64,000 nt of DNA from a virus, in IMG/VR virus record IMGVR_UViG_3300030333_006551, positions 1 through 64,000 of that record; one strand, 5' to 3'. Under the pieces are notes generated by a model that worked only from the letters and a program-made list of their open reading frames with translations, searched no databases and was not told the origin of the DNA. Below, piece after piece: positions 30,189-49,231 of this stretch; position 1 is the stretch's first letter; every line of letters begins with the position of its first letter. Position numbers and translations under genes: made by a program.

Positions 30189-30266
30189 GGGCAAGTAGCT
30201 CAGACAGGTTAGAGCGCGGTTCTTATAAAGCTGAGGTCGCTGGTTCAAGTCCAGCCTTGCCTACCA
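30189..30266 (+). tRNA. tRNA-Ile(UAU)
   Basis: Cloverleaf: GGGCAAG/CTTGCCT, anticodon loop CT-TAT-AA, GGTTCAAGTCC, encoded CCA. Confidence 0.88.
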
Positions 30267-30409
30267 GATACGCTAAGATTAGCTGATCGTGAGAGAGGCT
30301 GTCAGAACCGAAATCTTAGCAGGGAGGGGCTACGCGGGGTCTTTCGGGACTCTGCGCCCCTCCATTTTATTTCATAGAAAAAAATAACTAAAACGAAGTA
30401 AGGAAGGAA

Positions 30410-30485
30410 TCCCCGATAGCTCAGTTGGTAGAGCATTTGGCTGTTAACCAAAGGGTCCTAGGTTCGAGTCCTAGTCGGGGAGCCA
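30410..30485 (+). tRNA. tRNA-Asn(GUU)
   Basis: TCCCCGA/TCGGGGA, loop CT-GTT-AA, G73, CCA. Confidence 0.95.
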
Positions 30486-30493
30486 AATTAATT

Positions 30494-30748
30494 ATGTATG
30501 AGTGGAAAATCAGAGTCGCTAAAAGTTTGCGTGAGTTAGAAAAACTGGTAGAAGAGGTTCAATCCGAAGGATGGACTATTGAGAAGATTGATGTAAAAAG
30601 TGTTTGCGTAGTAGCTTACAGAACTAAGAGATGTAAAAATAAGCTATTATTGGAGCAACAGGATGAAGGATACATTGATCCTGCCGATAAAACATACCCT
30701 GCTGGGTTTGAGTGGGATCGTGGGGATTACGGGCAACAAAGTCTATAG
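30494..30748 (+). CDS. Hypothetical protein
   Basis: ORF MYEWKIRV between tRNAs; the longer start in the track overlaps tRNA-Asn. Confidence 0.5.
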   Translation: MYEWKIRVAKSLRELEKLVEEVQSEGWTIEKIDVKSVCVVAYRTKRCKNKLLLEQQDEGYIDPADKTYPAGFEWDRGDYGQQSL

Positions 30749-30795
30749 TGCATAGTTACATTTTTAGAAATAGAAAAAGACTAGGTGCTATCTAT

Positions 30796-30872
30796 GGGAC
30801 GATAGCCCAATCGGCAGAGGCAACAGACTTAAAATCTGTCAAGTGTGGGTTCGAGTCCCACTCGTCCTACCA
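30796..30872 (+). tRNA. tRNA-Leu(UAA) with short variable loop
   Basis: GGGACGA/TCGTCCT, ACAGA-CT-TAA-AA-TCTGT, 5-nt variable region, CCA. Confidence 0.9.
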
Positions 30873-30878
30873 AATACA

Positions 30879-31085
30879 ATGCAAGAATACCAACAATTAC
30901 TGTTTGATTTCGCTGTAGAACCTCCTGTAAGGTTTCATATACAGAGATCTAAAAACGCACCCATTGAAATTTGGGAGTATACTGATATCCTTGGAGCAGT
31001 TGAGCGAGGAAAGTATGTGATACTCACTTTAAAGGATAAGAGTTCCTTTATTCCAAGGTCCTGGGTAGTAAAAGTTGAGCAGTAG
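30879..31085 (+). CDS. Hypothetical protein
   Basis: ORF MQEYQQLL between tRNAs. Confidence 0.45.
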   Translation: MQEYQQLLFDFAVEPPVRFHIQRSKNAPIEIWEYTDILGAVERGKYVILTLKDKSSFIPRSWVVKVEQ

Positions 31086-31098
31086 TAAATTCTCGTAA

Positions 31099-31175
31099 GC
31101 TCCCGTAGCATAACAGGATAATGCAACGGACTTCTAATCCGTAGATTTCAGGTTCGAATCCTGACGGGAGTACCA
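31099..31175 (+). tRNA. tRNA-Arg(UCU)
   Basis: GCTCCCG/CGGGAGT, ACGGA-CT-TCT-AA-TCCGT, CCA. Confidence 0.93.
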
Positions 31176-40627: not shown

Positions 40628-40646
40628 GTCATAAAGGACCAAAGGT

Positions 40647-41396
40647 AAAAGTCAAATTAGAGAACCAAATATGATGTATTTTATATACGATGAGAACTAC
40701 TTAGATGAGAATGATGACTTCAATTATGTGATGTCCCCATGCTTCGAGAGCTTTGAGAAAGCAGCTAGTTATGGTATACGCCAAGCAATAAGAACAGACA
40801 AGAAGATAGTCACACTCATAACAGACCAAGGTATGATAATTACCTTCTGGAACCCACACCTAGAAGACCCACAAGAACCTGGACATAAGATGGGTACTAT
40901 CAATCATACCTTTAAGGAGTACCTACCCAAATGGTATAAAAGTTATAAGAAAAAGGAACAATTGAAGGATAAAATAGATCCTACTGATATTCCCGATGTC
41001 TGTCCTGAATTTGATGTAGATTAAATAAAAGGTACGATTTATTTAGAATCAATACATAAAAGTCAAATTACACATAGCATATATTATATAATATAAGTAT
41101 AGTGTATTGTTTTTGCTTTACCCAAACACACAAAATAATCTCAGTATGTCCGATATAAAAGTCAAATTAGAATTTAGTTGGAACTTTAATAAGCGCGATT
41201 GGAACGCTAAATTAAAACATTTCAATGAGTTTAAAGCAGAGTTAGAGAATAAGTCTGACTATGATCCTGTTAGTATGTTCTTCTTTCTTAATGATATGGT
41301 GTACCCTGAGCTAGAGCATATAGATGTAACACCCACTTAAGAAAAGTCAAATTAATACATACTTACATACAACTAACATATAAGAAAAGTCAAATT
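40647..41396 (+). repeat. Five direct copies of the 12-mer AAAAGTCAAATT
   Basis: Exact copies at 40647, 41058, 41157, 41342 and 41385. Confidence 0.85.
40671..41024 (+). CDS. Hypothetical protein
   Basis: ORF track. Confidence 0.5.
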   Translation: MMYFIYDENYLDENDDFNYVMSPCFESFEKAASYGIRQAIRTDKKIVTLITDQGMIITFWNPHLEDPQEPGHKMGTINHTFKEYLPKWYKSYKKKEQLKDKIDPTDIPDVCPEFDVD

Positions 41397-41465
41397 GATG
41401 TGAAATTATATCACCGATGGCCTATCATATAGTGGCAATGATCTGATAAGATCATGGTTATCTCC

Positions 41466-41501
41466 TAAGCACAATCATTTTATTTTAAATGATTGTGCTT
41501 A
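41466..41501. repeat. 15-bp perfect inverted repeat
   Basis: TAAGCACAATCATTT-TATTTT-AAATGATTGTGCTTA. Confidence 0.85.
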
Positions 41502-41553
41502 TTTATGTGTACACTCTGACTATAATAAGATCCCAAAGCTACCCTCTACCTAA

Positions 41554-41590
41554 GGCATCATTCTCAATTTAGAGAGTGGTGTCTTTTTTT
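41554..41590 (+). terminator. Intrinsic terminator at the end of the plus-strand block
   Basis: GGCATCATTCTC...GAGAGTGGTGTC followed by a T run. Confidence 0.55.
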
Positions 41591-41730
41591 ATCTCATTCT
41601 CAAATAATCTGATTTGCTCTAAACCATTGTCCCTACGGACTTTAGTTAGAACTTGCATTTACCATATATTTTATCATGCCAAGTTTAGATAATCAAGAAC
41701 AAAGTCCGATTTATTTAGAACCCGTTGTCG

Positions 41731-41780
41731 TAAGTCCTTGTCGATTCTACACTTATGGCGGGACGGGCCGCCCCGCGAAG
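41731..41780. repeat. Bipartite cassette-boundary repeat, copy 1
   Basis: TAAGTCCTTGTCGATTCTACACTTA + 11 nt + GCCGCCCCGCGAA. Confidence 0.9.
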
Positions 41781-41788
41781 GGGGAAAA

Positions 41789-41986
41789 TCAAGTCTTTTC
41801 TGGGTTTTTTCTAATGGGGGAGCATTGTTCGTCACAATCGTCACACCAGTAGGAATCCAATCTTTGCAGCCAAGAGGCTTTGTCCTCAAATCCGACTTCA
41901 TCGCGAGCACCGAGGGCATTCATAGGGAGGAACATGCTCCACTCTTGGCTCACATTCTCCCCGTTACACTTTTCACATATCCACAT
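41789..41986 (-). CDS. Small zinc-finger protein
   Basis: MWICEKC ... WCDDC; GGGGG RBS. Confidence 0.55.
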   Translation of the reverse strand: MWICEKCNGENVSQEWSMFLPMNALGARDEVGFEDKASWLQRLDSYWCDDCDEQCSPIRKNPEKT

Positions 41987-41994
41987 GATTCCCC

Positions 41995-42636
41995 CTAGTG
42001 AGATAGGAACTTGACGGTCTTTTGAGTGGTCCAGCATAGCGCACAGTCAGCACAGCTCTTGACCTTTCCAGTTTGCTCAGGGCAAACAAAGTGCTCACCC
42101 TCAAAGGATTCATCCGCAGCGAATAGGTGGTCCGCAGCATACGCTTTGTTCCGAGAGAATCGGATCACACAACGCTCAGAGAATCGGTTGTTGATGAGCC
42201 AGATGCGCTCACCGATGATGCTATCCTCTTCTCTAGCCGTATAGCCAAAGAGAGCCAGCTTGGGATATTCAAGTAGCATCTCTTCCCAGAACTTCACATA
42301 GTCCACAGAAAAGAAATCACCTAGAACATGCAGACGGATCACGATACCGTCCTTGTGCTTTTCCATGAGCTTATCTATCTCACGATGCAGAAAGAGGTCG
42401 ATGTTCTGGATCTTATAACGGTGTGCGAATGGCATGTTATCACCGTAGCAGTCGTTCCAATGATGGCAGGACTCGGGGCAAGTTGTCCTCTCTTCTAGGG
42501 TGAGAGAATATAGACGCTTCCCTGCCCACTTACCACGGGTAATGCGGAATCCTAGCTTTTTGTTGTTTGATCCAGGCTTGAGGAGACCAGTCCTAGGGTC
42601 CCGCAAGCTCTTCTGATATCGGCTCTTAGTCTTCAT
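41995..42636 (-). CDS. GP88-like Cys-rich (putative Fe-S) phage protein
   Basis: TCPESCHHWNDCY, IRLHVLGDF, GYT, CPEQTGKVKSCADCALCW. Confidence 0.7.
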   Translation of the reverse strand: MKTKSRYQKSLRDPRTGLLKPGSNNKKLGFRITRGKWAGKRLYSLTLEERTTCPESCHHWNDCYGDNMPFAHRYKIQNIDLFLHREIDKLMEKHKDGIVIRLHVLGDFFSVDYVKFWEEMLLEYPKLALFGYTAREEDSIIGERIWLINNRFSERCVIRFSRNKAYAADHLFAADESFEGEHFVCPEQTGKVKSCADCALCWTTQKTVKFLSH

Positions 42637-42643
42637 GGCGTAC

Positions 42644-42672
42644 ATTATATCAGGTCATCAGGGGTATTGCAA
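42644..42672 (-). promoter_or_regulatory. Sigma70-type promoter, leaderless transcript
   Basis: TTGCAA-17 nt-TATAAT, ATG 7 nt downstream. Confidence 0.75.
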
Positions 42673-42698
42673 CACAAAACAGGAAAAACTTTTCGCCG

Positions 42699-42752
42699 TA
42701 AGTGCTTGTGGATTCTACACTTACACGCGAACGCGCCGCCGCGCAAATGCGA
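42699..42752. repeat. Bipartite cassette-boundary repeat, copy 2
   Basis: TAAGTGCTTGTGGATTCTACACTTA + 11 nt + GCCGCCGCGCAAATGCG. Confidence 0.9.
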
Positions 42753-42767
42753 TTTGCAAGGATAAAA

Positions 42768-42848
42768 TGGTGGAGGTGCAGGGAATCGAACCCTGGTCCG
42801 AACGAGTGCCGTGTAGGCTCTAGCCCGTCGAAACTCCTTTACACCCCC
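42768..42848 (-). ncRNA. Minimal tmRNA-like RNA (tRNA-like domain only, 81 nt)
   Basis: GGGGGTG/CACCTCC-A-CCA with G3.U70, stemless D-loop ending TTCGAC, GGAC before the T-arm CAGGG-TTCGATT-CCCTG; only a short hairpin in place of the mRNA-like domain. Confidence 0.8.
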
Positions 42849-42853
42849 AAGGT

Positions 42854-43190
42854 AGGGTGGGCTAGATGTCGCCACCTAGCCAACTGGCCCGAGTTCAGAA
42901 CTCTTGCACCATCACCCCGAAGGGCGGGAGGCCACACTCAGCGGAGTGTTTCCGTTTACCATCTCTTTATAGGTGTGGCCTCCCTGCCTGTTCCCGAAGG
43001 CTACTCGCTTTCTTTTACTTCGTCCCTGATCAAAGGGCGAAGGTGGGGAGGGGGCTAGGCATAAAGTTTGCGATCACCCCTCTCCGAAGGTGGGGAAGGG
43101 GATAGGCTTCTATGGTTTGCATCACCCCTCCCCGAAGGTGGGGAGAGGTAGCAAGACGGTAAACCGCACTTTTACATGCTACCCCTCCCC
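42854..43190 (-). ncRNA. Array of small stem-loop RNAs separated by (A)CCTT(C) linkers
   Basis: Self-complementary units at 43140-43190, 43092-43133, 43045-43085, 42923-42988 and 42854-42918. Confidence 0.6.
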
Positions 43191-43196
43191 GATCAC

Positions 43197-43418
43197 TCAG
43201 CTAACCCCTTGGGTAGCCTTGTGGGCAGCCGTAGCTCCCTGATGCCTACCTGTCCACTCATCGGTGGGAAGAAGGCGACGAAGAGACTTGTAAGCCTCAA
43301 GCGCATGGTCAGACTCGTAAGAGCCCTGCTTCCAGAGGTCAGCGAACAGTTCGCCAACTTGAACGGAAAGACCTTGAATTTTGGCCTCCGTGGTGTTGTA
43401 CTCAAAAGATGAGCGCAT
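43197..43418 (-). CDS. 73-aa hypothetical protein heading the ncRNA cassette
   Basis: GAGGA RBS before MRSSFEY; promoter TGGACA...TATAAT at about 43488-43517. Confidence 0.55.
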   Translation of the reverse strand: MRSSFEYNTTEAKIQGLSVQVGELFADLWKQGSYESDHALEAYKSLRRLLPTDEWTGRHQGATAAHKATQGVS

Positions 43419-43527
43419 AGTGAAATCCTCTTGCAAGAGAGAAACTGAAGTGGGAGTAACTAACACAGACTCCCGATCTGTGAGCCCTATTATACCACGG
43501 GCTAGGTGGATTGTCCAGCGAAAAACG

Positions 43528-43836
43528 CTAGAAATAATACTCATCGGTTCCCATCCCAGCAGAGCCTAGGGCGTCATCATCAGCCCACTCATTGTCCCAC
43601 GGGTCAGACTCAGGCTCCTCCTCACCTCCGAAAACCTCATCTTGGCAGGACTGGCACATACCAGAGATCTGGTACTCCTTGCGGGACACATCATCCCTAA
43701 AGGATGTTGCAATGATGCCTTGGGCATCACAGGTTACACATGTGCCCTCACGGACACAGGTGGCACGGTCCTTGCCGTTGAAGATGATTTCAGAGAGGAG
43801 GGCGTCGATCTGCGGTGCTTTGTATGTCGGTTCCAT
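43528..43836 (-). CDS. Small Cys-containing protein with acidic tail
   Basis: CVTC ... SFRD..S.KEYQISGMCQSCQD; DDALGSAGMGTDEYY; leaderless promoter at 43844-43871. Confidence 0.65.
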   Translation of the reverse strand: MEPTYKAPQIDALLSEIIFNGKDRATCVREGTCVTCDAQGIIATSFRDDVSRKEYQISGMCQSCQDEVFGGEEEPESDPWDNEWADDDALGSAGMGTDEYYF

Positions 43837-43897
43837 GGAGACCATTATACCAGAACACAGGGGCGGATCAAGAGAAATTTTGAGAAACTTTTTGGCC

Positions 43898-43945
43898 TAA
43901 GTCCTTGTCGATTCTACACTTACGGAGGTTGCCGCCGTCGCCCAA
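43898..43945. repeat. Bipartite cassette-boundary repeat, copy 3
   Basis: TAAGTCCTTGTCGATTCTACACTTA + 11 nt + GCCGTCGCCCAA. Confidence 0.9.
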
Positions 43946-44052
43946 TCGGCCAATAGAGGCCAACTGAGGGGGGTTATTAGCTGATTCGAGCGTCTAACCA
44001 CATGAAAAGGAGCCCCATGCAGTAGACGAAGAGGATGAACCAGTAGGGACCT

Positions 44053-44382
44053 TCAAGCATTTCCGCGCATCTCTCTACCTTCTTCGGTGAGGGAGAACTT
44101 GAACTCCTCATCCTCGTCACACCAAGACATCTGCATAATGCCATCGTCCACCAGTTGAGAGAGGGTGAGGTCGATCTGGTGACTACCTGCCCTCTCTGTA
44201 ACTTCAGAGAGAAGCTGCTGAGAGCCTTCAGGGAAATCACGCAGAGCCATACGAGCAGCCCATTCGGAAAGCTCTCCAAGCTGGCCCGTGTAGGGCTGGC
44301 CCTCGATGTTCCACTTCTTCATCTCATCCGTGACGGGAGGATGATCGGGGATGGTGATGTATTCAGGTGTTTCAGGAAACAT
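44053..44382 (-). CDS. Hypothetical protein
   Basis: GGAGG RBS; coupled chain of ORFs. Confidence 0.55.
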   Translation of the reverse strand: MFPETPEYITIPDHPPVTDEMKKWNIEGQPYTGQLGELSEWAARMALRDFPEGSQQLLSEVTERAGSHQIDLTLSQLVDDGIMQMSWCDEDEEFKFSLTEEGREMRGNA

Positions 44383-44587
44383 AGGGAGGCTCCTCCATGT
44401 ATGAGAATTCTTTTTTGAGTTCGATCAGTTCGACAGCCTCAGCCACCTCAGCAGCGCAGAAGCCATCCCAGTACATCTCTGTCGCCAGAGGGCCATGCTC
44501 CACCATGTCGATACCAATCGACTGGCAGATGCGTTGAAACTCAGAGAGCTTCATTTCGAGGAAAGTATCCATCAGGAAAGACTCCAT
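44372..44587 (-). CDS. Hypothetical acidic protein
   Basis: Coupled chain of ORFs. Confidence 0.5.
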   Translation of the reverse strand: MESFLMDTFLEMKLSEFQRICQSIGIDMVEHGPLATEMYWDGFCAAEVAEAVELIELKKEFSYMEEPPYVS

Positions 44588-44763
44588 TCAGGGGTTGCGT
44601 TGTTTGCGTCAGCTTCCAGCTTCTCAGCCAGCTCCTCAGCGTAAAAGGTTTCGAGGTACTGCCTAGCCACCTTCTCAGGGTCAGGGCAGGGGAGGTTATT
44701 GTGATTGGTGGAAGTAAGGACACCGCAGAGATGCCAAGCGAACACATTGTCCGACAGTTCCAT
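44572..44763 (-). CDS. Hypothetical protein
   Basis: MELSDNVFAW; coupled chain of ORFs. Confidence 0.45.
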   Translation of the reverse strand: MELSDNVFAWHLCGVLTSTNHNNLPCPDPEKVARQYLETFYAEELAEKLEADANNATPEWSLS

Positions 44764-44780
44764 AGCGAGATTGAAGTAGC

Positions 44781-44924
44781 TCAAGCTACGACCTCGAAAG
44801 GGATGTCCCACACTCCGATAAGACCACGGAAGTAGGAGAGGAAGGAGGTAAGCTCAGACGCATCGCAGCGCACAAGCTCGTCACCCGTGTAGGGATTCTT
44901 GAGGAGGTATTGAGTTGCTTTCAT
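44781..44924 (-). CDS. 47-aa leaderless ORF
   Basis: ATG 7 nt after TATAAT (44932-44937); hand translation MKATQYLLKNPYTG. Confidence 0.45.
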   Translation of the reverse strand: MKATQYLLKNPYTGDELVRCDASELTSFLSYFRGLIGVWDIPFEVVA

Positions 44925-45180
44925 GGTGTCCATTATATCAGGTTTTTGGGAAATGTCCAGAACTTTCTGGGATTTATTTGCTCGCGTCGTAGCAGGGCTG
45001 GCAGATGAGGAGAGCCCACACTAGGCTATCGACCATGTGGGAGAGGGGGAATCGTCGGTCACAGCAGATACAGCGGACCATGTTGTCTTTGTCGCTCATA
45101 CATGTATAAGGGGCAAAACTCGGCAAACCGAAGGTGATTTCTCTGATTTCTTTTGGGTAATCCTAAGGTTTTTTTCGACC

Positions 45181-45234
45181 TAAGTGCTTGTCGATTCTAC
45201 ACTTACAGCGGGAGCTGCCGCCCCGCAAAATGCG
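45181..45234. repeat. Bipartite cassette-boundary repeat, copy 4
   Basis: TAAGTGCTTGTCGATTCTACACTTA + 11 nt + GCCGCCCCGCAAAATGCG. Confidence 0.9.
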
Positions 45235-45244
45235 GCTGTCAACA

Positions 45245-45618
45245 AAAAAACCCCTCGTTCGCAACCTTTTCTTTCCATGGATAAGTGCGTAGAAAAGAAG
45301 CGGGGCGAACCAGGGGCGAGAGGAAAAGGGAGAGAGAGGGACAGGGCTTAATGTATTACCTGCAAGGCTCCATGTTACTGGTTCTGATCACCTACGACAA
45401 ACGGCTATTGCCTTGACCATACCTCACGGATTTCCGCATCGGGTTCTGGCCTGTCTGCACTAGAGAGCAACAAAACTCTTATTATGCGACCCGCATCAGG
45501 ATGCCTCCCGATGCCTCTCCGAATTTCCAACCCCCTGAGAAGGATATCACTCCTCAGAGGCGCTCTGGGCCTAATGTCTATTTATACTCGCCCAGACGAG
45601 TGCCTAGCGTCCTAGGCA
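45245..45618 (-). ncRNA. Putative large structured non-coding RNA
   Basis: No ORF of 60 aa or more; consecutive hairpins at 45601-45618, 45564-45596, 45532-45560 and 45494-45515; long terminal hairpin plus T run at 45245-45316. Confidence 0.45.
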
Positions 45619-45830
45619 GTTAGGTAACGGTGATTACCCTTCGCCACATACTGGCGAGAACGCTTGTACTTGCGGTTCCAAGCGGACTTGGCTCCAGCAA
45701 GGGTGCCAACGAAGCTGTTGCTCCGTGTCGAGAGGTCGAAGATGGTGTAGACAGCGTTGCTGTCCGAACCAACCCGAACCATGACCGCGCTCTGGTTTGA
45801 GCGCACGATAGAAGTGATGTTGTTGAGCAT
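45612..45830 (-). CDS. 72-aa basic hypothetical protein
   Basis: AGGAG RBS; promoter TTGACC-17-TATAAT at 45869-45897. Confidence 0.6.
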   Translation of the reverse strand: MLNNITSIVRSNQSAVMVRVGSDSNAVYTIFDLSTRSNSFVGTLAGAKSAWNRKYKRSRQYVAKGNHRYLTA

Positions 45831-45893
45831 TTGCTCTCCTAGTAAGGGGTTTCGTTGAATGAGGGGCCATTATACCATGACCCCCCATGAAGG

Positions 45894-46286
45894 TCAAGCC
45901 TCAAGTGCGAGAAAAACATCTTCCTCGCTGATTTCCTTTCCGCTTGCAATATCCGAAGTGAGAGTAGACAAGGCAGCACGAAGCGCAGCCTTACGAGCCT
46001 TAGACACAGCGATCACCTTCTCAGCGTTAGCCTTCGCATTCTCAATAGATGCGATACGGGCCTCCGCCTTGGCGATGCGGGTGTCGAAGTTCTGCGGACC
46101 CTTAGAGAATCCTTTACGAGCCATAAGCTCGACCTTCTCAACCTCCTTGATCTCCTGAAGGAGAGGGGTGAGAAGCGGGTTAGATTTGGCCTCAGTCTCG
46201 GCCTGTTTGGCTTGCAGCTTGGCAAGCCGCGCCTCTGTCTCAGCGATAAGCTGATCGGGCGTTTTGCGTTTACGGGTTTCGTTCAT
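45894..46286 (-). CDS. Ala/Lys-rich coiled-coil protein
   Basis: Leaderless promoter TTGATC-16-TATAAT at 46294-46321. Confidence 0.65.
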   Translation of the reverse strand: MNETRKRKTPDQLIAETEARLAKLQAKQAETEAKSNPLLTPLLQEIKEVEKVELMARKGFSKGPQNFDTRIAKAEARIASIENAKANAEKVIAVSKARKAALRAALSTLTSDIASGKEISEEDVFLALEA

Positions 46287-46347
46287 GTGGAGCATTATAT
46301 CATAATCTGGAACGAGATCAAGACCTAATCCAAAGAAATATCGGTCC

Positions 46348-46401
46348 TAACCCCTTGTGGATTCTACACTTACGGCCAGCCGCGCCGCCCACCCAAATGC
46401 G
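46348..46401. repeat. Bipartite cassette-boundary repeat, copy 5
   Basis: TAACCCCTTGTGGATTCTACACTTA + 11 nt + GCCGCCCACCCAAATGCG. Confidence 0.88.
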
Positions 46402-46479
46402 ACATGCAAGAAAAAAAGGGGAGAGGATTGATGAAAGGTAGAGCCAGTAGCCTAACCTGAGGCCCCCTCCCCCCGAATG

Positions 46480-46803
46480 CTATGCCTCCATCGTGTTCCA
46501 CTCATCGTGGAGGTGGGAGTTCACGCAGATATCACGCTCGATACCTAGGCCCATGGGGAGACTGAGAGACTGAAGCTCAGAGAGGCTGAAGTAGCCCCAC
46601 TCTGCGCCACCGAAGCCCAGATCCACACGACCGAAGAAGAGCCAATCGCCCTCTGCATTCTCGGAGCCTTCGTAGACTTCCCAAGTGCCCACACCTACAG
46701 GGTTGAAGAACTTGACCACGATCTCTTTCTGATCGGTGGGGATGTCTTCGGTGGAGTAGAGAGGGGGAAGAGCCTTCTTGATTTTGTCTGTGAGTAGTTG
46801 CAT
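46480..46803 (-). CDS. DUF2958-family protein
   Basis: MQLLT....ALPPLYSTE, VKFFNPVG..TW...E, FFG.VDLG..AEWGYFSLSEL, IERD. Confidence 0.8.
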   Translation of the reverse strand: MQLLTDKIKKALPPLYSTEDIPTDQKEIVVKFFNPVGVGTWEVYEGSENAEGDWLFFGRVDLGFGGAEWGYFSLSELQSLSLPMGLGIERDICVNSHLHDEWNTMEA

Positions 46804-46894
46804 TAGAGAATACCTATAAGGGTGAGAATTGCGCCACTTGTGATGGCAAGAAAGAAAATTGCGCCTTCGATGGCGTCTCGTCTTGATCGGGTCA

Positions 46895-47104
46895 TTATCC
46901 GCGCTCCTTGTCGTTCCAGAAGTCTGCCCAGATCTCGCGCTCTTCACGCGCAAGCTCATCGCTGAGGTGCTGATACCAATCATCGTAGTCAGCATCTCCC
47001 ATCTCGGACTCGTCAGCCATGGCCTCTAGGACTTCGCGCTCCTCACGCACATCGTCCACCATGTCTCCTAGGATCTCGTTCCATTCTGTGCTGTGCTTGA
47101 TCAT
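46895..47104 (-). CDS. Highly acidic 69-aa protein
   Basis: Leaderless promoter TTGCAG-17-TATAAT at 47111-47139. Confidence 0.6.
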   Translation of the reverse strand: MIKHSTEWNEILGDMVDDVREEREVLEAMADESEMGDADYDDWYQHLSDELAREEREIWADFWNDKERG

Positions 47105-47128
47105 GGGTGTATTATACCTTGTTTGGAG

Positions 47129-47368
47129 TCAGTCTGCAAGAAATTTCTTGCGAATTTGGATAGCTCCACGGTGGTCCTGCCACTCACGCAGCAGTTCGTT
47201 CACCGTGATATCTTTGTCGAAGTGGATATCTTCCCAGACTCCACCTTCCACCTGCATTATCTCATGAGCAGAGGCTAGAGCCCCTGCATAGGTCATATGG
47301 AGGGTCTGAACCAGAACACCTTCATAGTCCTCACGAAGCTCAACAGTGTAGATTTCTCTGTTTTCCAT
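47129..47368 (-). CDS. Hypothetical protein
   Basis: Leaderless promoter TTGCCT-17-TATAAT at 47375-47403. Confidence 0.6.
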   Translation of the reverse strand: MENREIYTVELREDYEGVLVQTLHMTYAGALASAHEIMQVEGGVWEDIHFDKDITVNELLREWQDHRGAIQIRKKFLAD

Positions 47369-47540
47369 GCGTGTATTATATCAGGACTAGGCCCTAGAGG
47401 CAAGTACAAAGCATGATTTATATTGAGACATCCTAAGCACTAGGAATACCCAATGTTTGGCGGAGGATTTCGCAAAGGACTATAGGATTCCCCATTTGCG
47501 CCACCCGTATACATCGTACAAGTATTTCTAAGTTAACACT

Positions 47541-47614
47541 AAAAAAATTTTCAAAAAAAATTTTCAAAAAAATTGGACTTAGTTTTTGGGACTCCTAATT
47601 TGTTGGGACTCCTA
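47541..47614. repeat. A-tract tandem repeat and short direct repeat at the divergent strand switch
   Basis: AAAAAAATTTTC-AAAAAAAATTTTC-AAAAAAATT and two copies of TTGGGACTCCTA. Confidence 0.75.
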
Positions 47615-47623
47615 TATAACTAT

Positions 47624-47998
47624 ATGAAAGCATACGAAAAAATTTATAGGTTTTTAACGGAAGACACCCCATCTAAAACTGAGGTTTCTGTTAAGAAGGC
47701 TTTAGGTTGGAAAACAAGACCTGAAGATGATCCCAACATCGATCCAGGTACAAAAAGAGTTAGAATTCGAAAACGCAAGAAACAAAGACTTGGATCTATT
47801 CTAGCTACGGGGGGCGTAAAAAGACTTGCAAGAAAGGCTAAGAGTTCAGTTTACACTGATACTGAAGCAGAAGCAGTAGAGCACATGCTTAAACATAAAA
47901 AGGAACAAGGAAAAAAACGAAAGGCAGAAAAAGCAGAGGCTTTCGCGCGAACGAAAGCATTTACGTCTGGATCTTATCCACAACAAAGAGGTAAGTAA
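47624..47998 (+). CDS. Basic putative internal head protein
   Basis: MKAYEKIYRFLTE leader; CTATATA upstream. Confidence 0.6.
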   Translation: MKAYEKIYRFLTEDTPSKTEVSVKKALGWKTRPEDDPNIDPGTKRVRIRKRKKQRLGSILATGGVKRLARKAKSSVYTDTEAEAVEHMLKHKKEQGKKRKAEKAEAFARTKAFTSGSYPQQRGK

Positions 47999-48390
47999 TG
48001 AACGCATACGAAAGAATTTATACATTGTTAACAGAAGCTAAAAGCCCAGCTTCTCATGGCGCAGATGTCTTTCATAAGAAGCTAGGTAATGCTGGTCCTG
48101 GAGAGACCAAAAGAGCCGAGGCTGCTCTTAAAGCCAGCAAGGAAGCAACGGAGCGAAGAAGAAAAAGACAGGAAGCAGTTAAGTTTAAAAGAGGTCAAAA
48201 GATCTTTGGAAAGTACAAAGGATTTGTTCCTGGCACACCTGAAAGTAGACCTACTGCTGCATCAGAACCAACGAAACCTCGTATTAAGGGAGGGCATCAA
48301 GATTGGAGTTATAAAACCACTACGACCAAAGGTGGGGAAAAAATTAAGTGGAAGAGGCTTGGAAATAGTGGTCAATGGATTAGAGCATGA
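47998..48390 (+). CDS. Basic putative internal head protein
   Basis: MNAYERIYTLLTE leader. Confidence 0.6.
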   Translation: MNAYERIYTLLTEAKSPASHGADVFHKKLGNAGPGETKRAEAALKASKEATERRRKRQEAVKFKRGQKIFGKYKGFVPGTPESRPTAASEPTKPRIKGGHQDWSYKTTTTKGGEKIKWKRLGNSGQWIRA

Positions 48391-48665
48391 TGAACGCATA
48401 CGAAAGAATTTATAGTCTATTAACAGAAGAAGGCAGGTCCAACCCACAACTAGACTATATTCTCAAGTCTAAAGAAAATGTAATGAGTGGAGCTACTAGA
48501 GCATTCCGTAGAGGAGCCACACAAGCTAAGAAGACAGGTAAAGGCAACAGAGGAGAGGATAAAATTCTTAATGTTCCTAGAACCTTTAAAGCAATGTTAA
48601 GAAGAGGTCGTAAGGCTAGACAACAAGGTAAGATGAGAAAATTTGTAAAGGATGTAACACCATAA
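48387..48665 (+). CDS. Basic putative internal head protein
   Basis: MNAYERIYSLLTE leader. Confidence 0.6.
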   Translation: MMNAYERIYSLLTEEGRSNPQLDYILKSKENVMSGATRAFRRGATQAKKTGKGNRGEDKILNVPRTFKAMLRRGRKARQQGKMRKFVKDVTP

Positions 48666-49231
48666 TGAATACATACAAAAAAATTCGCGGCCTCCTAACG
48701 GAGGCGCAAAACATTCCTAGGAGAGGATTTGTGCAACAGCATCGTGATGACACAAGAGGAAAGGGTCAACCAAAAGGAGCTTTCTCTGTGCAAATGGCGA
48801 AAGATGATATGGCTGTTGACGCTGAAAAGGATGCGCTAAAGAAGCAGGATAGAATGAGAAACTTTATTTCTAAGTTGGGTAGCGCGATGTTCAGAACAAA
48901 AAGAAGAGCACACTTGCAAAAAATGAAGGCTGCTGGTATTGCTGATGCTAAGGAGAGTAATATGAAAGGATACGAGAGATTATATGAGATGATTCTTGGA
49001 GAAGGTAAAATGCAATCACGCGATTACGCTGGTCATGAGGGAAGAATGAAGGGTCATATGGCTAGAATCCAAAATGATCCTAGATTTGAAGAGCCTGATC
49101 CTAAAGCAAAAGCCCGAGGTGCAAAGGGTGCCCAAAAAACAAATAAGAAAGGTAAAAGCCAAAGTCGTGGATCGAATCCTCAAGAATATGGCGATTTTGG
49201 TGGTGAAACTAGAGGGGAAACACGAAGGTAA
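48665..49231 (+). CDS. Basic putative internal head protein (two fused units)
   Basis: MNTYKKIRGLLTE leader and internal MKGYERLYEMILGE preceded by AAGGAG. Confidence 0.6.
   Translation: MNTYKKIRGLLTEAQNIPRRGFVQQHRDDTRGKGQPKGAFSVQMAKDDMAVDAEKDALKKQDRMRNFISKLGSAMFRTKRRAHLQKMKAAGIADAKESNMKGYERLYEMILGEGKMQSRDYAGHEGRMKGHMARIQNDPRFEEPDPKAKARGAKGAQKTNKKGKSQSRGSNPQEYGDFGGETRGETRR

Follow-up and report, generated by a model that had tools for sequence, protein, structure and literature searches.

In T4-type phages, the intergenic elements known as PeSLs (promoter-early stem-loops) combine a strong sigma-70 promoter with a stem-loop, occur in hyperplastic regions of the genome and recombine with one another, as described by Arbiol et al. 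(2010, PMC2839356) and Comeau et al. (2014, PMC4122927). In the parts of these papers that treat the elements, crossovers are mapped to several portions of the module and the question of a helper protein is left open (PMC2839356; PMC4122927). The present analysis concerns a comparable repeat, a 25-bp box followed by a GC-rich tail, in a marine cyanophage, the virus of IMG/VR record IMGVR_UViG_3300030333_006551; the window, meaning the whole stretch of DNA analysed, is the first 64 kb of that record (positions 1 to 64,000), in which T4-type portal, terminase, head and sheath genes were found. A preliminary description of the window had likened the repeat to PeSLs, and the comparison is apt, both being repeated promoter modules in a hypervariable region of a T4-type phage. 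The element is best filed as a boundary module of the PeSL kind with an added palindrome-like box (a putative protein site), predicted leaderless starts and a GC-rich island as its setting. We prefer, with a probability of roughly 0.45, to read the box as an operator that is linked to the promoter downstream of it and that doubles as a patch of homology for the shuffling of cassettes.

The likeness to PeSLs, as these are portrayed in the accounts cited above, extends to architecture and setting: both are composite intergenic modules in which a stem-loop (here a GC-rich segment able to fold) immediately precedes an A/T-rich tract and a strong early promoter of the sigma-70 type, and both recur among small genes of unknown function where the genome of a T4-type phage is hypervariable, with indels and replacements between relatives. 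Here, however, a 25-bp palindrome-like box stands between stem and promoter and is the best-conserved part of the module. The PeSLs described have a Shine-Dalgarno sequence, whereas leaderless mRNAs are predicted here. In addition, the stems lack a U-tract, the island lies 10-14 GC points above the backbone, and the family spans many uncultured marine lineages.

Three other systems bear comparison. The stoperators of cluster A mycobacteriophages (PMC9283540) are many copies of one protein-binding site in short intergenic spaces and act on transcription; our repeat has a similar placement and putative role. In both cases, the consensus is lineage-specific and uniform per genome. Stoperators are ~13 bp long, asymmetric, spread genome-wide and, in temperate phages, recognised by the immunity repressor; the site here measures 25 bp, resembles a palindrome and is restricted to the early island, in a phage that has neither an integrase nor a recognisable repressor. 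The sites of phi29 p4 and of class I promoters of CAP resemble the box in being inverted repeats ~70-95 bp upstream of the start, on one helix face and by an UP-like tract; sequence and length differ, and the analogy rests on spacing alone. Integron attC and pdif sites share with the repeat its same-orientation copies between unrelated small cassettes, an inverted repeat with a 6-8 bp centre and array-specific variants. In contrast to these, there is here no integrase and no covariation of the arms, the centres differ within arrays, each cassette has its own promoter, and breakpoints are not confined to the site.

Anatomy and spread of the repeat

The repeat lies in a GC-rich early island (41700..47410, minus strand), recognised from the composition profile, the open reading frames (ORFs) and a promoter scan as a leftward region of ~52% GC composed of small self-promoted units; the window has ~38% GC and nearly all its genes are on the plus strand. 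Five plus-strand copies start at 41731, 42699, 43898, 45181 and 46348, with spacings of 968, 1199, 1283 and 1167 bp. The preliminary description had listed the same five copies in the same orientation, and a scan with shuffled controls confirmed them: the 19-nucleotide (nt) core pattern, allowing at most 3 mismatches, had 5 matches in the window against 0.05 expected (standard deviation 0.22), and 0/100 shuffles reached 5. Scanning the complete 129,906-bp genome returned the same 5 copies and none beyond the island (reverse strand, 0; reversed control, 0).

The structure initially proposed for the repeat held, save for one detail. The 25-bp core fits 5/5 copies, copy 5 carrying TAACC where the others have TAAGT, and the distance from the core to GCCG(C/T)C is exactly 11 nt in all five, but the AA(TGCG) tail is present in three copies (42699, 45181 and 46348) and not in those at 41731 and 43898. 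Copy 1 (TAAGTCCTTGTCGATTCTACACTTA, 41731..41755) forms the left edge of the island; copy 2 (TAAGTGCTTGTGGATTCTACACTTA) occupies 42699..42723, copy 3 43898..43922, copy 4 45181..45205 and copy 5, with the alternative left arm TAACCCCTT, 46348..46372, all on the plus strand. Two centres, GTCGATT and GTGGATT, occur among these boxes. The GC-rich tail of copy 1 (41756..41780, plus strand) consists of 11 variable nt followed by GCCGCC and could form a short stem; equivalent tails follow copies 2-5 at 42724-42748, 43923-43947, 45206-45230 and 46373-46397. The DNA between copies proved to be unrelated cargo, as had been stated: a GP88-like protein (Pfam E 1.5e-6), a DUF2958 protein, small ORFs and the structured RNAs, namely a transfer-messenger RNA (tmRNA)-like RNA and a Pistol ribozyme. 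The idea that the repeats bound cassettes of ~1-1.3 kb was borne out as well, the cassettes carrying predicted promoters of their own.

When viral contigs were scanned for the exact pattern, a single relative came up: a contig of 130.6 kb belonging to a Prochlorococcus single-cell assembly, with six copies of the box and an island that spans the contig ends. Among metagenome contigs, 26 loci were retrieved, ~24 of them with true copies and the same flanking architecture. Single degenerate-pattern matches without the flanking features, in L029, L050 and L060 (L numbers denote related loci) and in seven other viral contigs, were treated as chance. As a second anchor independent of the repeat, we used the GP88 protein, which led to 80 viral loci, and ORF133, which led to 4; 82 of these loci were examined under a relaxed box rule (left arm with at most 1 change, a CTTA, GTTA or TTTA end, then a GC-rich tail). 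Boxes were found in 27 of them and at least three boxes in 22, and every locus whose GP88 protein is at least 54% identical has boxes. An unbiased repeat search in L077 returned six copies of GC stem plus box as its top family and the promoter as its second, which confirms that the box family is real independently of the search rule. The scan of relatives thus uncovered a family of arrays in marine contigs, spanning many uncultured marine phage lineages, each with its own box variant.

A DNA search of the GenBank phage collection with this phage gave no match. The GP88 homologues in GenBank phages (at most 40% identity) belong to T7-like roseophages, in which no boxes were found; in the roseophages CRP-361 and CRP-114 (OR420750.1, OR420740.1; L157, L158), gene 1, the first of the early genes, encodes a GP88-family homologue with 38-40% identity, which supports an early, host-directed role of the GP88 family. 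Literature searches by box strings and by the topics of cyanophage early genes, leaderless mRNAs and palindromes found no account of this box; the strings matched nothing but primers and microRNAs without relation to it, and PMC12801897 has the word leaderless solely in the title of a cited work.

Cassette proteins are 45-76% identical between contigs and boxes differ by 0-5 of 25 nt, the copies having been found partly by pattern. The box is far better conserved than the cassette cargo, which counts for an operator. In many lineages it is a near-perfect 9-7-9 inverted repeat, as in L069 (TAAGTCCTT / GAAAACA / AAGGACTTA), and these relatives establish the inverted arms around a 7-bp spacer that had been read from the window. 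Most arrays contain arms of both types, TAAGT(C/G)(C/G)TT and TAA(A/C)CCCTT, each of which can stand on either side of the box, and every combination of the two is seen. In the 16 arrays with at least four boxes, variation is highest at positions 11-15 and lowest at 1-3, 8-10, 17-19 and 23-25; a variable centre between stable arms is the pattern of a dimer operator. Positions 16-19, the inner right part, differ by lineage and are uniform inside one genome, which agrees with co-evolution of the box and a phage protein, or else with gene conversion. The left arm and the outer ends are conserved between lineages whose proteins share only 30-60% identity. Several contigs have two inverted boxes around one GC segment. 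Degenerate boxes with 6-9 changes occur where relatives have good ones (L039, ~780-825; L044, 1089-1113; L037, 1210-1234), and in the L039 box the middle reads better inverted while the ends are unchanged.

We compared the arms with each other across 128 distinct boxes. At mirror positions 4-9, Watson-Crick pairs were observed in 63, 71, 51, 59, 57 and 56 cases, against 69.1, 77.0, 47.1, 55.3, 59.0 and 57.0 expected for independent arms. Because complementarity equals the expectation for independence, the arms vary independently and a hairpin is not under selection. These data favour a double-stranded DNA site for a protein rather than a folded nucleic acid.

Relation of the box to early promoters and to cassette exchange

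The promoter scan gave eight minus-strand sigma-70-like promoters in the island, with scores of 9-11 of 12 and a TG-extended -10 in 8/8. Three copies had been reported to lie 26 bp upstream of the -35 box of the next leftward promoter, and we found this for the copies at 42699, 43898 and 46348, whose promoters are at 42644..42672 (TTGCAA, 17 nt, TATAAT, with TG; an ATG 6-7 nt past the -10), 43844..43871 and 46294..46321. The promoter at 41668..41696, also with a TG-extended -10, is 34 bp from box 1. A second minus-strand sigma-70 promoter (TAGAAT, with GGCGGC 17 nt upstream) was considered and set aside, its elements not being conserved in other lineages. In the family as a whole, a start codon (ATG/GTG) lies 6-7 nt beyond the -10 in 74/102 (57 + 17) extended -10 promoters. 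Such a position leaves no room for a leader, so that mRNAs without leader or Shine-Dalgarno sequence are predicted, and leaderless early mRNAs would be expected across the whole family.

The distance between box and promoter was examined in 160 distinct boxes with enough flank, a leaderless-type promoter being sought within 150 nt; 115 boxes had one. From the box end to the -10 there are 48-50 nt in 65 cases, 55-60 in 26, 66-70 in 12, 31-44 in 6 and more than 100 in 4, with almost none between, and 94 of the 111 gaps of at most 100 nt fall in residues 8, 9 or 0 modulo 10. The spacer sequences differ widely between lineages; their length is kept. These discrete classes would put the centre of the box near -73, -83 or -93, on one helix face and by an A-rich UP-like tract, and the spacing looks like helical phasing. 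CAP class I sites lie near -61.5, -71.5, -82.5 and -92.5 and the phi29 p4 sites near -71 and -82; such upstream geometry belongs to regulators that contact the polymerase alpha subunit, as these two do. A promoter follows 81/99 of the boxes that fit in the standard orientation only, 0/19 of those that fit inverted only and 0/6 of the fully palindromic ones (near-duplicate contigs included). The orientation of the box is tied to the direction of transcription.

Exchange of cassettes was evident when the two complete genomes, G000 and G001, were compared: their cassettes are not the same in content and order, one small gene is found in different cassettes, G001 has extra cassettes, and several junction regions are replaced. 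Many of the differences end in promoters or genes, not boxes. In alignments, similarity often stops at the box or the GC tail, but also elsewhere. Among 630 instance pairs, 15 share the promoter-side flank only and 4 the other flank only; in the 15, similarity switches 25-65 nt after the box start and in 0/15 inside the box, a placement blurred by the conserved module. Arm variants are not consistently linked to their flanks. In L028 and L032, an identical box and GC tail stand at unrelated junctions of one genome, which points to gene conversion, and the GC tail differs between L030 and L038 though both flanks are homologous. Over the island, the DNA contigs of four public runs are broken into fragments, with joints that replace promoter-box-tail segments and, in one case, skip from 43994 to 46498; their summed depth over the island is several-fold above the flanks, a depth that is not a copy number. 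The module marks where gene units get swapped. The preliminary description had reasoned that an identical cassette order in relatives, with no breakpoints at the repeat, would refute recombination and leave the repeat a regulatory role; what we found is that content differs and that similarity often ends at the module.

In our proposal, the repeat forms the upstream half of a larger intergenic module, a composite of 50-110 bp read on the minus strand. Its parts would follow one another as GC-rich stem segment(s) ending one early unit, the 25-bp box, the A/T-rich UP-like tract, a near-consensus sigma-70 promoter with extended -10 and, 6-7 nt on, the ATG of a leaderless mRNA. The box would consist of two inverted half-sites, TAA-NNN(N)-CTT, with a tolerant centre, and we infer that a dimeric protein binds it. 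This protein is probably phage-encoded and would act on the adjacent early promoter through the polymerase; since the promoters are already so strong, timing or shut-off of early transcription is more plausible than activation. Because it is repeated and conserved, the module may also offer a patch of homology at which exchange and gene conversion take place, by which cassettes would be shuffled and copies homogenised within a genome, a process that has been put forward for the PeSLs of T4-type phages too. Of the three roles first suggested for the repeat (integron-like recombination sites, operators of one early regulator, protein-loading sites on first-injected DNA), that of operators fits best with the promoter phasing, the independent arms and the variable centre.

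The palindromic box was present in 6/201 host-family genomes against 8 for the reversed control, which is the chance level, and in the Prochlorococcus single-cell genome itself it was not commoner than the reversed control. The scan of candidate hosts, which had been suggested at the outset, thus makes a host regulon unlikely and favours a phage-encoded or virion-delivered protein. Pfam and PHROGs searches of the island proteins, the 149 ORFs and the 25 island families revealed nothing DNA-binding in the island and no repressor. A search of PDB sequences with the GP88 profile had a best E of 0.58, and the Atlas gave GP88 clusters only. A 188-amino-acid flank protein that had seemed sigma-like by eye had no Pfam or PHROG match and no similarity to the sigma-70-like cassette protein of L090. 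By eye, none of the consensus sites of NtcA, LexA, CRP, CIRCE, Pho box and IHF fits the box. A promoter of a phage single-subunit RNA polymerase, formed by the box and the G-rich segment on the plus strand, was likewise rejected: there is no such polymerase among the 149 ORFs, and the box is palindrome-like in relatives.

Several observations weigh against an operator. No binding protein was identified by these searches, and the models of the best-conserved island proteins, ORF72 and ORF133 (mean predicted local distance difference test scores of 79 and 91), had no fold match in the PDB at E <= 0.001. There is no promoter within 150 nt of 45/160 boxes. In the window, 4/8 island promoters have no box, namely the first (rightmost) one at 47375..47403 and the three internal ones at 45869-45897, 44932-44959 and 43489-43517 (all minus strand), and box 4 is followed by no canonical promoter. 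When the spacers were clustered by single linkage at 65% identity, 102/111 fell in one cluster, and the spacing classes could be due in part to shared ancestry of whole modules. That the box ends keep TAA and TTA in all lineages is in part imposed by the search rule. For a simple repressor, binding at -73 would be unusual. Finally, the promoters, leaderless starts and transcript ends are sequence predictions.

Alternative readings of the box

Some of these observations would be expected if the box served to close the upstream unit and not to start the next one. A protein on the box would then act as a roadblock or insulator, halting polymerases that arrive from upstream and supplying the termination that GC stems without a U-tract cannot give alone. 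In agreement with this, the box always comes right after GC-rich stem-forming segments without a T-run, no box precedes the first island promoter, upstream of which there is no unit, and both the promoterless boxes (45/160) and the inverted box pairs around one GC segment would find an explanation. There is also a precedent in stoperators, described as repressor sites that also end elongation at many sites of the phage genome (PMC9283540). We nevertheless regard a roadblock as unlikely. It does not require the phase-locked distance to the next -10, and the Pfam and PHROG searches of island and ORFs yielded no repressor gene. Moreover, stoperators are asymmetric and orientation-dependent, whereas the box is palindromic.

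In the second alternative, the box would be the 9-7-9 core site of a tyrosine recombinase, either a host Xer-like enzyme or an unrecognised phage enzyme, by which cassettes are inserted and excised in the manner of integrons or pdif modules. The 9-7-9 geometry in many lineages, the same orientation of copies at cassette boundaries and the differing content of relatives are consistent with this. Every combination of the arm types TAAGTSCTT and TAAMCCCTT is seen, which is what hybrid sites would show, and the boxes are lineage-specific and homogeneous within a genome, as are chromosomal integron arrays. However, a six-frame search of both complete genomes for Phage_integrase (PF00589) and Resolvase (PF00239) gave 0 matches at E <= 1, the control genomes being positive, and no recombinase was found among the 149 ORFs or the 25 island families. 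The absence of a recombinase from the window, noted earlier, therefore holds for the rest of the genome too, and the tyrosine recombinase suspected to lie elsewhere was found in neither G000 nor G001. Tyrosine recombinases need matching overlap regions, and the centres differ within the arrays of L076, L080, L087 and L088. The switches of similarity outside the box (as far as the conserved module lets them be placed), the arm variants that do not track their flanks and the many differences between G000 and G001 that end in promoters or genes do not fit such sites, nor does a box that is at chance level in host-family genomes, and the promoter phasing would be left unexplained. Site-specific recombination is in our view doubtful. 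The integron-like model is not supported, given the lack of a recombinase and of arm covariation, the variable centres within arrays and the breaks beyond the box.

A broader version of this idea would give a large group of uncultured marine phages a phage-borne cassette platform, in which self-expressed, leaderless early genes are inserted, removed and passed between phages at a dedicated 9-7-9 site by an unrecognised enzyme or a hijacked host Xer-type recombinase; we consider it unlikely as well. On such a platform, the same site would double as control point of each cassette promoter, giving an integron-like system native to lytic phages, and the early cassette genes would probably serve host takeover or anti-defence.

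No dedicated protein would be needed if the module were a patch of homology that propagates itself, or a repeat of the REPIN kind, its copies being kept alike by frequent gene conversion alone. The concerted evolution of box and GC tail within genomes and the GC tails that differ despite homologous flanks (L030 and L038) would agree with this. So might the GC excess of the island: in 19/19 related loci with flank, the box-bearing island lies 7-12 GC points above the adjoining backbone, which may reflect either early genes tuned to host codon usage or GC-biased conversion. Conversion within a genome, however, cannot explain a left arm and outer ends that are conserved across lineages, and the discrete promoter spacing points to selection. 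We find this reading improbable.

The GC tail was also examined for folding. It can fold in every copy; G-U pairs gave a mixed answer as to the strand, the minus strand being more stable in 30/37 and the plus strand in 6. Compared with shuffles of its variable half, the mean z is -0.6, with 14/36 below -1 and 15/36 above 0. RNAalifold found no consensus structure for box plus tail, and a covarying hairpin in the tail, once considered, was dropped on these two grounds. The GC-rich foldable segment always adjoins the box, and its stems have no T-run after them on either strand; an intrinsic terminator was set aside for this reason. That box and GC stems act in the transcript, in processing, as a 3'-end stabiliser or in antitermination, is the least probable of the alternatives, in spite of the foldable tails and an island rich in structured RNAs (Pistol ribozyme, tmRNA-like domain), as the arms do not covary, the tail hardly exceeds its shuffles, no consensus structure was obtained, and sequence is far more conserved than structure.

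If the box is indeed an operator, a single protein would govern the entire early expression of a group of phages that is widespread in the ocean and has at least one member found with a Prochlorococcus cell, and the box would be a ready handle for finding this regulator. The module delimits independently expressed early genes, a class that usually holds host-takeover and anti-defence functions, and so offers a simple way to harvest such genes from metagenomes. It would also extend the PeSL idea, that of a regulatory sequence doubling as a recombination patch, beyond enterobacterial and Vibrio T4-type phages, and would add to it a putative conserved protein site, a component on which the PeSL authors, in the sections that deal with the elements, had only speculated.

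Cargo and surroundings of the island

The structured RNAs of the island lie on the minus strand. The full-length Pistol ribozyme (45526-45601; 69.6 bits against a gathering score of 34.5) is in the non-coding tail of the cassette between box 4 and box 5, just downstream of a conserved ORF of 72 amino acids. The tmRNA-like RNA (42768-42848, 81 nt) comprises the tRNA-like domain only: both ends of the Rfam model match, with 308 positions skipped. It terminates in CCACCA, and its third acceptor pair is read as G-U. A tmRNA-like element also precedes a box in G001, L037, L039, L042 and L044. Upstream of it on the minus strand, at 43037-43145, are three tandem units of ~47 nt, each a C-rich/G-rich hairpin (CACCCCTC..GAAGGTGGGGA), which are largely missing from G001.

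Just before the island, two strong terminator-like hairpins with T-runs (41466-41501 and 41552-41585, plus strand), one of them a perfect 15-bp inverted repeat, would protect it from rightward read-through. To the left of the island, the motif TAAAAGTCAAATTA is repeated upstream of plus-strand genes, at 40646, 41057, 41156 and 41321-41399, and a motif matching it is found on the opposite strand in the L077 and L069 flanks. Non-early genes may use this motif as their promoter type. Directly to the right (47573-49231, plus strand), four to five tandem paralogues encode very basic proteins, all starting MNAYE(R/K)IY..LLTE (repeat family D3). The phage also carries, at 30189-31175, tRNAs for A/T-ending codons.

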